A stretch of 64,000 bases of DNA from an uncultured Candidatus Babeliaceae bacterium (GCA_963704655.1 OY969927.1:1120001-1184000), one strand, 5' to 3'. Positions 25,804 through 61,514 are shown, counted from the stretch's first letter. Made by a program: numbers and translations. The notes: a model not told the origin generated them from the letters alone.

Positions 25804-26580
25804 ATGATGAAAAAAAATATAAAACTAGTTTTAGTGGCGGCTTTAGTAGCTGCCTGTTCAGTTAACCTATATAGTATGGTTTCAGGGCCGGCAAAAAGAG
25901 CAGCTAGCACAGCGCTTGCGCGTACTGCTGCTGTTGAGGGCTTAGGGACACGTTCTACTGGAGTTCTTCGCCAAGCAATAAAGCCGAGTTATGTACCACA
26001 AGGTATGCCACAGCGTCCGTATACAACATTTCCACGCTTTCAAGTACAACAATATGGTTCAGTATTATCGCCACAAATGCTTGCAGGTTTGGCCGGAACA
26101 GGTCTTGCTGCAGGTTATTATTATAATAAACCTTCTATTTTTAAAACTGCATTAAATGAACCAGCTGAGAATAATTGGGACGACTACCGTGTAGAACAAG
26201 CTGAACTAGAAAGGGCAATTAAGGATTATTCGGATATTTACATGCAGTTTCAAAAACTGTCTGAAAGTAAAACTTATCGTGACTTAATTAATGAGATTCA
26301 AAAGAAAAAAAGTATGTTAAGTCATGGGGAGTTGTTTAGTCGTGATGAGATGGCGCATGTAACTTCTTTAATTGAGGCTTTTAATAAAGAGTTTAATCCT
26401 TTATCTGAAAAGATGAAAGAGTTATTCAATAGGGAAGTTTTTTCTGTCCTAGAAGGGCATCGAATTAAAGGAAATATTTATTGGGAATTAAAAAACGACT
26501 TTAGATTTGATTCTATAAAGGACTTTGAGTCAGAAGTGTCGAATATGCGAAATTCTAATTCAAAGTACTATGCCAAGTAA
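25804..26580 (+). CDS. Secreted protein, paralog family C
   Basis: N-terminal about 63 aa nearly identical to the 26653 ORF. Confidence 0.8.
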   Translation: MMKKNIKLVLVAALVAACSVNLYSMVSGPAKRAASTALARTAAVEGLGTRSTGVLRQAIKPSYVPQGMPQRPYTTFPRFQVQQYGSVLSPQMLAGLAGTGLAAGYYYNKPSIFKTALNEPAENNWDDYRVEQAELERAIKDYSDIYMQFQKLSESKTYRDLINEIQKKKSMLSHGELFSRDEMAHVTSLIEAFNKEFNPLSEKMKELFNREVFSVLEGHRIKGNIYWELKNDFRFDSIKDFESEVSNMRNSNSKYYAK

Positions 26581-26652
26581 AGAATATTTTTTGCTACAAA
26601 TGAGAATGATTGGGGCGCTTTTTTTTATTAAAAAGTAGAAAAAAGGGAGAGG

Positions 26653-27474
26653 TTGATGAAAAAAAATATAAAACTAGTATTGGTGTCGGCTCTTGCAGTT
26701 GCCTGTTCAGCAAAAGTATATGCGATGGTTTCAGGGCCGGCAAAAAGAGCAGCTAGCACAGCTCTTGCGCGTACTGCTGCTGTTGAAGGTTTAGGTGCAC
26801 GTTCTACTGGTGTTCTTCGCCCAGCAATAAAACCAAGCTATGCGCCACGCCCAGGTTTTGGGCAAGCTCAACCTGGTACAACTTTATCGCGCTCAGCATT
26901 ATCACCACAAGTATTTGCAGGTTTTGCTGGGACGGGCCTTGCAGCTGGAGCCTTAGGTAGTGTTGCTTATAGTTTTCCTCAAGGAGACGTTTTTGAAGCA
27001 CAATTTGCTCAAGGAGCTCGCAATAAAATGAAAAAAGAAAAACTTATGGCGGTTAATGATTTTGAGCGTTTAATGAGTAGCATTAAAGATCCAAAAAAAT
27101 CTCAGCAAGAAAGAATAGATCTGATCGTTATGCTCATGAACATTATTGATCGCCCATTATTTTATTATAAAGAGGCGCATAATGCGCCACATTTAACGAG
27201 TAATTGGTTGCGCGCAATTGCATCATTGCAGTTAGGGAATTTGATATTAGACCCTGAAGTTTTAAAACTTATAAAGACATCGATTGAGTCTGAGCCACAA
27301 GGTGAGCTTGCTAAAGTATTTAAGGTGACCGACAAAAATGTGTTATCGGATGTTTATGACATGGTGATGTTTGAAGTTACTCATGCCGGAAGTAGTTCTC
27401 CCGAAGATCGCTGGTTGAATAGAGCCTTAAATGAAGTAGAGATCAAGCTTGAAAACATCAAAAATCAGTTTTAA
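26653..27474 (+). CDS. Secreted protein, paralog family C
   Basis: Shared MVSGPAKRAASTALARTAAVEGLG; unrelated C-terminus. Confidence 0.8.
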   Translation: MMKKNIKLVLVSALAVACSAKVYAMVSGPAKRAASTALARTAAVEGLGARSTGVLRPAIKPSYAPRPGFGQAQPGTTLSRSALSPQVFAGFAGTGLAAGALGSVAYSFPQGDVFEAQFAQGARNKMKKEKLMAVNDFERLMSSIKDPKKSQQERIDLIVMLMNIIDRPLFYYKEAHNAPHLTSNWLRAIASLQLGNLILDPEVLKLIKTSIESEPQGELAKVFKVTDKNVLSDVYDMVMFEVTHAGSSSPEDRWLNRALNEVEIKLENIKNQF

Positions 27475-27484
27475 GCTTTTTAAA

Positions 27485-27874
27485 CTATAGTGAAAAATAG
27501 TTTTTAAGGATGTTTTTAAATTGTGCAGCACCCTTGCCGCCGGTTTCTGTACCTATAATTTTTTGATCTTTAATAAAGATCACGGTTGGGATAGATTGAA
27601 CCCCGTATGATAGTGCGATATCCCGGTACTGTTGAGTATTTACTTCGACAAAAACAATTGAATTAAAGGTACCCTCATCAGAAATTTGGGCATAAATAGG
27701 TGCAAATCCTTTACAGGGTGGGCAAAAATCGGCATAAAATTTAATTACAACATTTCTATTGGAATTAATAACCGATTTAAGCTGACTCATTGAGGTTATA
27801 TGAGTAACTGCAGCTTCTAAAAAGAAGTTCATGGATGAAATGGTTAATAAAAGCAATTTTAATATATATTTCAT
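27485..27874 (-). CDS. Exported thioredoxin
   Basis: FYADFCPPC, SIPT; signal peptide. Confidence 0.85.
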   Translation of the reverse strand: MKYILKLLLLTISSMNFFLEAAVTHITSMSQLKSVINSNRNVVIKFYADFCPPCKGFAPIYAQISDEGTFNSIVFVEVNTQQYRDIALSYGVQSIPTVIFIKDQKIIGTETGGKGAAQFKNILKNYFSL

Positions 27875-27970
27875 TTTGAATTTCTTTCTTGGTATGAGAA
27901 AATTCTTATCTATACGTTAGTTAACAAAAAGATCTTGTTTTGGTCAAGCGATTATTTTATGCTGCTCATT

Positions 27971-59853: not shown

Positions 59854-59925
59854 TAAAAGTATCCCCTTACGAATAATTATAGTATGAAACACAGAGTACT
59901 AAATTGGAGAAACCAATGCTAGATA

Positions 59926-60486
59926 TTAACTAAGTTGTCTTATTGCTGCAGCTTTAACAATACTTTTTAGCGTTATAAGAGTTGGATCATCAGGGAATAT
60001 TTCAAGCTCATGAGTAATAATGTCCCATGGTGGTAACGCATATTCTAACCAAGTAGGTTCTAAAGGTCCCACAATTGTTGGTTCAGAGATTTTACAGTTA
60101 GGTGCATTTAAAAGAACTTCCAAAAGTTTTGTATCACCAAATTCTTTGGCAATCTTATAAGCTTCGTTTAAAACTGAGCTTGTGCGTTGCTCAGAGCTTC
60201 TAACTTCAAATATTTTATAAATGCTATTCATTTTGCACTTTATACCTGCCTGATAGAGCTGTTTTATCTCTTCTTTAAAAAAACCTTTATAACAACAATA
60301 ACATTTGTTTGTTTTGAGCTCGGGCTTAAGCTTTTTAAGCTGTGCTTTGTACAATGTTATCCTTTGTAGGTAGATATTAAAATCATCGTCAAGGGATACA
60401 AATCTTGATTCAAGTCCGTATGCAACGCTTGTGGTTAAGCATGACAAGAAGATAAAATTATTAATAATAAAAGTATAATTACTCAT
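59926..60486 (-). CDS. Hypothetical secreted protein
   Basis: Start moved downstream of the terminator; signal ending VAYG. Confidence 0.6.
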   Translation of the reverse strand: MSNYTFIINNFIFLSCLTTSVAYGLESRFVSLDDDFNIYLQRITLYKAQLKKLKPELKTNKCYCCYKGFFKEEIKQLYQAGIKCKMNSIYKIFEVRSSEQRTSSVLNEAYKIAKEFGDTKLLEVLLNAPNCKISEPTIVGPLEPTWLEYALPPWDIITHELEIFPDDPTLITLKSIVKAAAIRQLS

Positions 60487-60579
60487 AATGGTGCTTTCAA
60501 AAATTAAGATAATTTTGTTTATGCAAGTATATAATACGGTATTTAGTTCTGTGATACTAGGTCTTGAGGCAAAATTTAT

Positions 60580-60614
60580 AAAAAAAGGGCAAGCTCTCAT
60601 ATCAGAGCTTGCCC
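60580..60614 (-). terminator. Intrinsic terminator
   Basis: gggcaagctct..agagcttgccc with T tract on the minus strand. Confidence 0.75.
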
Positions 60615-60638
60615 GGTCAAAGAATTTTGAATGTTTTT

Positions 60639-61514
60639 TTAGCGTATAGTATTAATGCGTGATTCTGTATTGAGCTTTACAGCTTGACTGGTAGCTAGCG
60701 GATGGGCGCTTAAGACTTTATACGCATTATTTATTTGTTCTAAAAGCCCTTTACGCGTAGATAATAATAATGCTCTTTGTGTTGGTTTGCCTACGCCATT
60801 TATTTCATGAAAATTAAATTTTTTCATGTTGTTATAGTTTAAAAAATCTTCTATATGAACCGCTTTTTTTTGATGCGTTTCTGGATCACTATAGGCAATC
60901 TTTTTTTGTGCAAAGTTGCCCTGAGTTTTTTTGATAACGCCCATTAAAATATCAAGTTTGCTTGGCGCATTGAGAGATTGAATAAGAACAAGTCCTGGAA
61001 CAGTAAAGTGAGTTGTTACGGGCCCATTTTGATTTATTTCATAAATAGTATCATGGCCACATAATAACGCAGCATCAATAACTCTTTGTGCTGATACATG
61101 GGTATTTTCTGCATTGTTGTATTGACTCATTAACTGTATAAAATATTTAAATTGCTCGTTTTCACCATTAACTTTATTCATAGATGGATAAGAATTGAAT
61201 AGAACAATATCGAAAGGCTCTGGTGTAGCTGGTTCAAGGGTACGTTTTTGAGCTGGTGAATTGCTTGGTGTATCATCACCGAAATGTAGTTTCGATCTTA
61301 AGTTATAACCACTAAGCCTTCTTGGGTTTACTGGTGTAAGATTTGCAGGTGAGTATGCTAGCCCTGATCTTGTGCGAGATGCTGCCTCAAATTCTGGTGT
61401 AGTTGCATCTTGATACACTTCAATTTTTCTTCTTTTGGGTGCTAAAGCATCCATTGCTAACATGGGCAGGGTTGATGTTGCAGTAAGGAGTAAGAGTAGT
61501 TGTTTGATAGTCAT
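60639..61514 (-). CDS. Secreted protein, paralog family F, with NLS-like PKRRK
   Basis: IYEIN..TVPGL..IEDFL shared with the 62564 ORF. Confidence 0.75.
   Translation of the reverse strand: MTIKQLLLLLTATSTLPMLAMDALAPKRRKIEVYQDATTPEFEAASRTRSGLAYSPANLTPVNPRRLSGYNLRSKLHFGDDTPSNSPAQKRTLEPATPEPFDIVLFNSYPSMNKVNGENEQFKYFIQLMSQYNNAENTHVSAQRVIDAALLCGHDTIYEINQNGPVTTHFTVPGLVLIQSLNAPSKLDILMGVIKKTQGNFAQKKIAYSDPETHQKKAVHIEDFLNYNNMKKFNFHEINGVGKPTQRALLLSTRKGLLEQINNAYKVLSAHPLATSQAVKLNTESRINTIR

Follow-up and report, generated by a model that had tools for sequence, protein, structure and literature searches.

Methionine at the first mature position of predicted exported proteins in a Babeliaceae genome and other Dependentiae

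Introduction

In a 64,000-nucleotide stretch of DNA from an uncultured Candidatus Babeliaceae bacterium (GCA_963704655.1 OY969927.1:1120001-1184000; the window), many predicted exported proteins appear to begin with methionine once their Sec-type leader is removed. The question raised by this locus is whether Met at the first mature position is a genuine feature of a protein class and, if so, what keeps it there. The original prediction named 12 such sites, noted that Asp, Glu, Asn, or Gln usually follows the Met, and proposed a Sec-dependent effector class whose processed N terminus either mimics a host-made protein or acts as a second-step export signal. Internal translation starts, and signal cassettes fused onto preexisting open reading frames (ORFs), were put forward as alternatives.

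The window covers positions 1,120,001 to 1,184,000 of a single contig of 1,298,077 bases with 38% G+C (the source genome, G000), which belongs to the Babeliaceae within the Dependentiae. Genes for leucyl-tRNA synthetase (LeuRS), UvrB, a MurJ-like protein, alanine racemase, and a peptidase of family M3 represent housekeeping functions in the window, and many short leader-bearing genes with no family assignment lie among them. Dependentiae are widespread parasites of protists in which a third or more of all proteins have export leaders, and the exported proteins are mostly orphans. To our knowledge, no injection system is known from the group. For cultured members, the main text of one study gives predicted signal peptides in 79 of 126 ankyrin proteins (PMC4378268), and that of a second study gives them in 78% of ankyrin proteins and 44% of all coding sequences (PMC6561590).

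Results

Met is enriched at the first mature position

Residues are numbered here from the predicted cut, with −1 as the last residue of the leader and +1 as the first mature residue, and proteins with Met at that position are called Met(+1) proteins. Genes in the source genome were called with a simple caller of our own, which yielded 1254 genes covering 88% of the genome. For each gene, the most upstream start giving a leader-like N terminus was used, and the cut was placed by a predictor that scores the fall in hydrophobicity together with the residues at −3 and −1 and is blind to the residue at +1. From +2 onward the predictor prefers polar residues, a preference with equal effect on leaders followed by Met and leaders followed by other residues. 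As a control, 79 loci around uvrB from other phyla were put through the identical pipeline. The combined leader-plus-site filter passed 387 of 1254 called proteins (31%) in the source genome, in agreement with the 44% reported for one cultured Dependentiae member (PMC6561590), versus 62 of 932 (6.7%) at the control loci.

Each of the 12 named coordinates starts an open frame that encodes a hydrophobic leader and then has an ATG exactly where it had been placed, and the residues before the Met fit the −3/−1 rule at every one of them (L, V, T, or M at −3 and S, A, G, or C at −1). The placement of the cut directly before the Met held in part, with the predictor agreeing at 7 of the 12 sites (26653, 32400, 32894, 42268, 45706, 47400, and 59853) and choosing a different position at 5.

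Across the source genome, with one site taken per protein, Met was the commonest residue at +1 (49/387, or 12.7%, with the packaged pipeline and 48/378 in an earlier run). Its mean frequency at +2 to +10 was 1.6%, and it ranged from 0.5 to 2.9% at each of the flanking positions from −8 to +10, leaving aside −1 and −3, where the site rule excludes it. Among the control proteins, 2 of 62 had Met at +1; both resemble membrane anchors (MR.. and ML..), and neither has D, E, N, or Q as the next residue. The claim that Met at +1 exceeds background is thus borne out.

The same excess appears when every compatible position is counted. In 518 leader-like, non-multispanning proteins of the source genome, Met followed 77 of 1169 positions compatible with the −3/−1 rule and no more than 12 residues behind the hydrophobic core (6.6%), versus 68 of 5047 positions elsewhere in that zone (1.3%). 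This is a 4.9-fold increase, and the corresponding ratio for every other amino acid lay between 0.55 and 1.28. Compatible positions make up 19% of the zone and hold 77 of its 145 Met residues. A cleavage matrix trained by ourselves on −8 to −1 only was dropped, as it fell into the hydrophobic core and returned mostly L, A, and F at +1.

Clustering of the mature parts gave 314 clusters, of which 38 were majority Met and 43 had at least one Met(+1) member. Because 38 of the 314 clusters are majority Met, paralogy is not the cause of the enrichment. Compared with the 3.2% of the other phyla, the cluster counts give a binomial p of ~4e-12, a rough value given a baseline of 62 proteins. Of the 49 Met(+1) proteins, 13 fall in the 100-kb bin covering most of the window.

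The residue after the Met is also distinctive. D, E, N, or Q follows in 76% of the Met(+1) proteins of the source genome, as had been anticipated, compared with 22% at the second residue of 653 proteins without a leader, a position most often occupied by Lys (Fisher p ~2e-14), and with 41% at +2 of leader proteins lacking the Met (p ~1e-5). Met followed by D, E, N, or Q is the substrate class of the eukaryotic N-terminal acetyltransferase NatB, in which the initiator Met is retained. By predicted site, 37/49 Met(+1) proteins in the source genome have an N terminus of this type, as do 12/15 and 18/28 in two relatives described below (G006 and G008).

Leaders are translated and resemble Sec type I signal peptides

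If the Met codons were internal translation starts, ribosome-binding signals would be expected beside them rather than before the leader. In the source genome, 61% of Met(+1) genes had a Shine-Dalgarno-like (SD-like) word of at least 4 bases located 4 to 20 bases upstream of the leader start, with a G-rich peak at −11 to −7. Only 1 of the 49 Met(+1) codons had such a word, a lower rate than at other internal ATGs (13% of 1132). Such a word was present at 52/82 leader starts, 5/82 Met(+1) codons, and 164/1043 other internal ATGs in six relatives. Homologous leaders have diverged wholly in sequence and kept their leader features, for which selection must act on the translated product. Together these results show that the Sec-type leaders are translated, and they disfavor the internal-start alternative. 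An alternative-start proteoform pair, in which the internal start has a ribosome-binding signal of its own, was rejected on the same counts; because some 40 to 55% of genes here lack an SD-like motif anyway, motif-free initiation at the Met retains some probability.

The leaders have the properties of Sec type I signal peptides, with a positively charged n-region, a hydrophobic h-region of some 10 to 15 residues, a median length of 19 residues, A, S, G, or C at −1, and L, I, V, A, or S at −3, the 32894 leader being an exception in that its n-region is uncharged. The source genome encodes a single match to the signal peptidase I family TIGR02227 (106.5 bits; cutoff, 47), and members of this family were found in 21/21 genomes in one search and 41/41 in another. 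Two other leader types were considered and rejected. Lipoprotein leaders cut by signal peptidase II place the lipobox Cys at +1, where these proteins have Met; Cys does occur at −1 in some (..FC↓M, where the arrow marks the cut). Type IV prepilin leaders are short and charged and end in Gly; the mature part opens with Phe or Met, contains the hydrophobic stretch, and has Glu at +5. Here, the hydrophobic stretch precedes the cut, A, S, or C predominates at −1, and 8% of cases in the source genome have Glu at +5.

Leader-coding DNA is shared in 25 pairs of genes in the source genome whose mature parts are nonhomologous. Because these are mostly tandem neighbors, and only 1 such pair was found in G008, a mobile leader cassette is not the general route by which the proteins acquired their leaders. 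One tandem family of small exported proteins outside the window, at ~620,300 to 623,900 of the source genome, has leader DNA that is ~90% identical, mature parts whose homology is no longer detectable, and I, M, M, and S at +1.

The Met persists where its surroundings do not

Conservation of the Met was clearest in a LigT-like phosphoesterase from a genome of the same genus (G003), aligned with 13 database homologues at 31 to 100% identity. The column at the leader boundary is Met in 13 of the 14 sequences, and the leaders are wholly different. Position −1 is A, S, T, or G, but it is Asp in the lone sequence without the Met; the residue at +2 is drawn from E, D, K, N, and Q. The conserved core starts at KYTVG, and the linker that joins it to the Met is variable in sequence and differs in length by 3 to 9 residues. 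A broader comparison used homologous leader proteins of less than 45% identity from nine genomes of the family-level group f1; these pairs are mostly ankyrin paralogues and are nonindependent. Identity was 35% at +1, 6 to 16% at +2 to +8, and 7 to 15% at −6 to −4. Among same-genus homologues, the Met was retained in q33, q90, q255, q377, and q380 and lost in q145.

The Met is therefore kept where its flanks are saturated with change, and ATG has no synonymous codon, which indicates purifying selection. These alignments point to a Met that is held at +1 by such selection while leader and linker vary freely. With its enrichment and its retention in relatives, the +1 Met is confirmed as real, strong, and conserved beyond the window.

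Some homologues bear on where the Met came from. A HAD-like protein of the source genome (124931-125779) has a same-genus homologue called as leaderless, which by eye starts a few residues past the point matching the Met. In the LigT-like family, the homologues P0016, P0007, and P0012 begin at the Met or 2 to 4 residues earlier, and some of these starts are perhaps gene-calling choices. The carrier homologue described below and other eukaryote-like cargo must have arrived as complete reading frames. Because some homologues are leaderless near the Met and such cargo came as whole frames, the leader may have been gained upstream of an existing start codon. Of the suggestion that preexisting ORFs were extended at their ATG by leader cassettes, the start-codon origin thus is possible, and the cassettes are not general.

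The Met marks effector-type proteins rather than orphans

The 13 Met(+1) proteins of the window (Table 1) had no Pfam matches (0/13), and 8 of 30 other leader-like proteins in the window had one (M48 and M3 peptidases, thioredoxin, Hsp20, WD40, GNAT, and a weak BBE match). The Met had been presented as a feature of secreted orphans, a link that did not survive: because most leader proteins in the window that lack the Met are orphans too, orphan status is not the distinguishing property.

Two relatives with larger Met classes were more informative. In G008, 22 of 28 Met(+1) proteins are ankyrin-repeat proteins, one more has a weak match, and one is a mitochondrial-carrier homologue. In G006, ankyrin proteins make up 8 of 15, F-box-like matches occur in four of these 8, and two proteins have weak J-domain matches. 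Among leader proteins without the Met, ankyrin proteins number 11/51 in G008 and 4/68 in G006, a comparison in which Pfam matches were accepted up to an E-value of 1e-3 in the Met(+1) set and 1e-5 in the non-Met set. The true share is probably higher, because in several ankyrin genes rejected by the filter a leader with S or C as its last residue, and then Met, can be made out by eye. A secretin, an M23 peptidase, superoxide dismutase, thioredoxin, a phosphodiesterase, and a GMC oxidoreductase all fell in the non-Met leader set of these two genomes. The proposed tie to effector-type proteins is supported by this division, with the Met class mostly ankyrin and F-box proteins in G008 and G006 and envelope housekeeping proteins lacking the Met. 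As judged from domain content, the Met class is a set of putatively host-directed, fast-evolving proteins (ankyrin, F-box, J-domain-like, carrier homologue, and orphans) and not one of envelope housekeeping.

The carrier homologue (G008 L019:533-1399, + strand) matches Mito_carr at 1.6e-30 and lies behind an export leader and MQQE. This eukaryote-like membrane protein may be aimed at host mitochondria; alignments of it with solved structures stopped short of its N terminus.

The Met is unevenly distributed in Dependentiae

Leader proteins were compared across 18 other Dependentiae genomes, sampled at 37 to 400 kb each, several of the samples being small (Table 2). An early view that the trait was confined to f1 was overturned by the genomes from f4, f10, and f11. 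The +1 Met is not uniform in the phylum; several Dependentiae families have it, and others, as well as other phyla, have it rarely.

Table 2. Met(+1) proteins among leader proteins in sampled Dependentiae genomes; f1, f2, and so on are family labels
Genome	Group	Met(+1)/leader proteins
G003	genus of the source genome	14/87
G006	f1	15/83
G007	f1	4/16
G008	f1	28/79
G009	f1	10/31
G010	f1	1/25
G011	f1	3/8
G012	f1	2/8
G015	f4	8/63
G021	f10	8/21
G025	f11	7/21
G055	f14	2/7
G056	f5	3/36
G016	f5	2/60
G013	f2	1/11
G014	f3	0/7
G017	f6	0/14
G027	f12	0/9

Three genomes poor in the Met are equally AT rich (G017, 29% G+C; G027, 30%; G016, 32%), and because such genomes have few cases, base composition and the pipeline alone do not make the signal. 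UvrB identity to the source genome is 70 to 73% for most f1 genera, 70% for f10 and f11, 68% for f4 and f12, 67% for f2, 64 to 65% for f5 and f14, and 54% for f3. Taking UvrB as a rough guide, and given the small samples, this hints that the Met-rich lineages may be those nearer the source genome.

Met(+1) proteins and other genes of the window

Coordinates and boundaries of the window proteins are collected in Table 1. A full HMMER search with the 26653 protein returned just itself and its paralogue, and database searches with the window orphans turned up solely near-identical proteins or paralogues. The Met is retained in same-genus homologues of the 32400 protein (..ILSA followed by MDNY) and the 59853 protein (..SSFC followed by MKSS); the same-genus homologue of the 39635 protein lacks it at that position. 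Membership of the 32894 protein is doubtful, as its leader is too short for confidence and has neither a positive n-region nor an SD-like motif.

Table 1. Met(+1) proteins of the window, in window coordinates; sites are named in the text by the start of the leader, and the arrow marks a cut
Coordinates	Strand	Assignment	Leader	First mature residues	Met codon	Remarks
25804..26580	+	orphan exported protein	24 aa (..NLYS)	MVSGP	25876-25878	paralogue of 26653; predictor VAA↓C, 7 residues upstream; no Pfam match
26653..27474	+	orphan exported protein	24 aa (..KVYA)	MVSGP	26725-26727	predictor agrees
31493..31834	-	orphan	19 aa (..YLQA)	MQDV	31775-31777	predictor PSSA↓V, 5 residues upstream; no Pfam match
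31916..32284	+	orphan	20 aa (..SLFS)	MDAQ	31976-31978	predictor FSFS↓L, 3 residues upstream
32400..32840	+	orphan	17 aa (..VLYA)	MDDQ	32451-32453	AAGGA upstream of leader start
32894..33205	+	doubtful member	11 aa, TTG start (MLLFLITHLFS)	MDSM	32927-32929	
39635..40216	+	thirteenth candidate, outside original list	..AAIS	MPNR	39689-39691	alternative site ..RAYA↓RQM
42268..42696	+	orphan	21 aa (..SLSA)	MDAK	42331-42333	predictor agrees; AAGG upstream of leader start
45041..45706	-	orphan	21 aa (..YLHG)	MQSM	45641-45643	paralogue of 46804-47400
46804..47400	-	orphan	21 aa (..CVYG)	MNQN	47335-47337	
49589..50314	-	orphan	21 aa (..ATVC)	MAQE	50249-50251	predictor TAFA↓T, 3 residues upstream
59380..59853	-	orphan	18 aa (..STFC)	META	59797-59799	
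60639..61514	-	orphan	20 aa (..PMLA)	MDAL	61452-61454	predictor MDALA↓P, 5 residues downstream

In the family of the 45041-45706 protein, G21 and M22 are invariant in 3/3 aligned sequences, and +2 and +3 vary. A language-model look-up pointed only weakly to GNAT for this protein (score, 0.90, with 113 to 114 of 256 features in common), and its AlphaFold model, with a mean pLDDT of 39.5, was unusable. Between the 45041-45706 protein and its Met(+1) paralogue lies a HigB/HigA-like pair (46225-46765, + strand), consisting of a Gp49-like (DUF891) gene and then a Cro/C1-type helix-turn-helix gene. By eye, the 60639-61514 protein is a possible paralogue of 62564-63274, in which the leader is followed by Ala (..CFA↓AEA).

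Other window genes include a RimI/N-terminal-acetyltransferase-like GNAT (295-837, + strand) with a lipoprotein leader (..FLAGC↓TTSD), whose best matches among solved structures are RimI, Naa30, and archaeal N-terminal acetyltransferases (E, 1e-6 to 1e-4). An acetyl coenzyme A-dependent enzyme anchored outside the cytoplasm is odd. It was rejected as a trait-linked enzyme, since homologues with a hydrophobic N terminus were found in 17 of 21 relatives, Met-poor ones included, and there was no correlation with the Met. A gene for a PemK/MazF-like toxin (51878-52252; Pfam, 2.9e-26) overlaps the terminal part of an upstream gene of 93 amino acids with no Pfam match, and the two (51604-52252, + strand) are probably a type II toxin-antitoxin pair. 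A further leader-bearing protein (52749-53486, − strand; no Pfam match) has long Gly-rich runs (GGGGGGGGH.., RGFGGGG repeats, and GWGGWGWG) and an acidic tail.

Discussion

Of special interest is why a class of exported proteins would keep Met at a position set by a protease. The explanation we prefer, at a probability of roughly 0.4, is that the leaders are ordinary Sec leaders and that Met at +1 is held as a host- or cytosol-type N terminus for an effector class. The single signal peptidase I of the genome would cut these leaders, and one class of its substrates would keep Met as the first mature residue, with Glu, Gln, Asp, or Asn usually in second place. This Met probably descends from a start codon, in genes of cytosolic or eukaryote-like type to which 5′ extension added a leader. 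Outside the bacterium the exported protein would need a defined N terminus, and the Met would have been retained for that reason. What is exposed would be an N terminus of the kind made in a cytosol, with an initiator Met retained before D, E, N, or Q, the class acetylated by eukaryotic NatB. The likely benefit would be that host machinery reading N termini does not take the effector for a cleaved fragment. True NatB-class N termini arise by translation initiation and are acetylated at the ribosome, whereas here the Met would be exposed outside the bacterial cytoplasm by predicted leader cleavage.

Several points weigh against this explanation. NatB acts on nascent chains at the ribosome, so acetylation of a delivered protein is an extra assumption, and arrival of the Met(+1) proteins in the host cytosol would itself be a presumption. 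Two predictions of a host-type N terminus were not seen: D, E, N, and Q were not depleted at +1 in Met-rich genomes (0.18 in the source genome versus 0.15 to 0.22 in Met-poor genomes), and the effectors that lack the Met showed no avoidance of N-terminal D, E, N, or Q. In Met-poor families, the residue behind the leader of ankyrin proteins is D, E, N, S, T, I, A, or P and not Met, so export of an ankyrin protein does not depend on Met. All cleavage sites in the analysis are predicted, and at 25804, 31834, 31916, 50314, and 61514 the predictor's choice lies 3 to 7 residues to one side or the other of the Met boundary; homologues back the Met site at 25804 (its paralogue, 26653) and at 50314 (a same-genus homologue with ..SLNG↓MQSM). 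A rule-free measure, which takes the residue before the first polar or charged one after the core, found Met in 27/532 cases (5.1%) in the source genome and 4/97 (4.1%) in other phyla; because Asn, Gln, and Lys within c-regions spoil this measure, we regard it as uninformative rather than contrary. The missing depletion of D, E, N, and Q and the sister-family ankyrin proteins that manage without Met are the reasons that the host-type explanation is held tentatively.

Ranked second, by inference, is a second-step export tag, in which cleavage would expose Met-[E/Q/D/N] and so sort cargo bound beyond the periplasm (through type II secretion, vesicles, or the host vacuole membrane) from periplasmic residents. 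We consider this rather unlikely. An analogy exists in the surface lipoproteins of Bacteroidetes, which carry an N-terminal export signal, and we know of no type II secretion signal that is a linear N-terminal tag, which counts against the idea. The division of cargo described above is what a tag would produce, with effector-type proteins carrying Met and envelope housekeeping proteins lacking it; the motif is short, positional, and conserved; and with leaders on 387 of 1254 proteins a sorting rule would be needed. The ankyrin proteins of sister families and many orphan leader proteins of the window do without the Met, however, and no lineage-specific machinery tracked the trait, the one candidate examined, the membrane-anchored GNAT, being present in Met-poor lineages as well. 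Type II is the only secretion system reported as detected in one cultured Dependentiae member in the main text of PMC4378268.

A processed N terminus that is needed for export has a precedent in the PEXEL, or host-targeting, motif of Plasmodium, where RxLxE/Q/D is cut by plasmepsin V and the new N terminus is required, as described in the parts of 10.1101/2023.07.12.548774 and PMC3567231 consulted here. In both cases an intracellular parasite would expose a short N terminus of the form x-E/Q/D through proteolysis in its own secretory pathway. The PEXEL system belongs to a eukaryotic parasite and has a dedicated aspartic protease, a known translocon, and a motif downstream of the signal sequence, whereas here a bacterium would create the end by the signal peptidase cut itself, and passage into the host is only presumed. 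The PEXEL motif proper was rejected, since −3 to −1 read L/I/V, any residue, and A/S/G/C, with no Arg at −3 or −5. That Met-[E/Q/D/N] might be a linear host-targeting tag, a bacterial counterpart of the processed PEXEL N terminus by which a parasite with only Sec and type II secretion would choose, among several hundred periplasmic proteins, those to pass into the host, is an unlikely reading.

Quite unlikely, too, is that the ATG is simply an older start codon, kept by descent or as a second start for a leaderless form. The homologues called as leaderless at or near the Met fit this view, as do eukaryote-like cargo (mitochondrial carrier, F-box, and ankyrin) that would come as complete frames and tandem families that share leader DNA while their mature parts have diverged. 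Relics placed at random would, however, lift Met at +2 to +5 and −2 to −5, which was not seen; an ATG with no synonymous codon persists amid neighbors saturated with change; and the residue after the Met is unlike the usual second residue of proteins in this genome. Against a dual start stand the missing SD-like motifs before the Met codon, to the degree that motif-free genes permit, and the inference that a leaderless ankyrin or F-box protein would have no obvious use inside the bacterium.

A processing optimum, in which Met at P1′ aids cleavage or translocation of the alanine-poor leaders of this lineage, is highly improbable. The −1 residue is often Ser, Gly, or Cys and the −3 residue Ile or Leu in these AT-rich genomes, and the Bacteroidetes Q-rule is a precedent for a lineage-specific +1 residue (PMC5837995, as far as its text was covered). 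Yet housekeeping envelope proteins pass the same single peptidase without Met, and the equally AT-rich G017, G027, and G016 have few cases. Barely credible is an artifact in which translation truly starts at the Met and what look like leaders are spurious upstream extensions of cytoplasmic genes in AT-rich DNA: the pipeline does pick the most upstream leader-like start, some plainly cytoplasmic enzymes were called (GDP-mannose dehydratase and glycosyltransferases), and the HAD-like case may fit, but SD-like motifs precede the leader start and not the Met, over half of the Met residues near the core (77/145) occupy the one-fifth of positions (19%) that suit cleavage, homologues with differing leader sequences keep leader features, and other AT-rich genomes lack the effect.

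Among described systems, the Q-rule comes closest. In the portions of PMC5837995 and PMC10653852 consulted, Gln is at +1 of most signal peptidase I substrates of Bacteroidetes and is cyclized to pyroglutamate by a lipoprotein glutaminyl cyclase. In both systems a lineage-specific +1 residue at Sec/signal peptidase I sites sets the exported N terminus, and the role proposed is protection. The residue here is Met, with Gln at +1 in just 24/378 proteins, so these proteins do not follow the Q-rule itself. Where the Q-rule covers most substrates, the Met is found in a subclass of putatively host-directed proteins amounting to 13 to 38% of leader proteins where it is common; a modifying enzyme is known for the Q-rule alone, and the Met rule is uneven within its phylum.

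The signal peptide-bearing ankyrin proteins of cultured Dependentiae are of the same phylum and the same kind as the Met class, and a +1 rule is absent from the main texts that describe them. The word "methionine" occurs 0 times in the main texts of PMC4378268 and PMC6561590; "signal peptide" is absent from the searched text of PMC4776705; and "methionine," "Dependentiae," and "TM6" have 0 occurrences in the searched text of the Q-rule paper PMC5837995. A search for literature on host NatB acting on bacterial effectors, and on N-degrons of leader-processed effectors, found nothing on this point. Within the literature searched, the +1 Met rule is undescribed.

A positional rule that parts host-directed proteins from envelope residents would be a simple handle for candidate effectors in thousands of uncultured genomes. 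Through a single residue, it would open a route to studying how a bacterium with only Sec and type II secretion places proteins in a eukaryotic cytoplasm and keeps them stable there. As a second lineage-specific +1 rule after the Q-rule, it suggests that selection on the N terminus made by signal peptidase is stronger than commonly supposed. If the host-targeting tag were true, a one-line sequence rule would allow the effector set of a whole phylum to be read.

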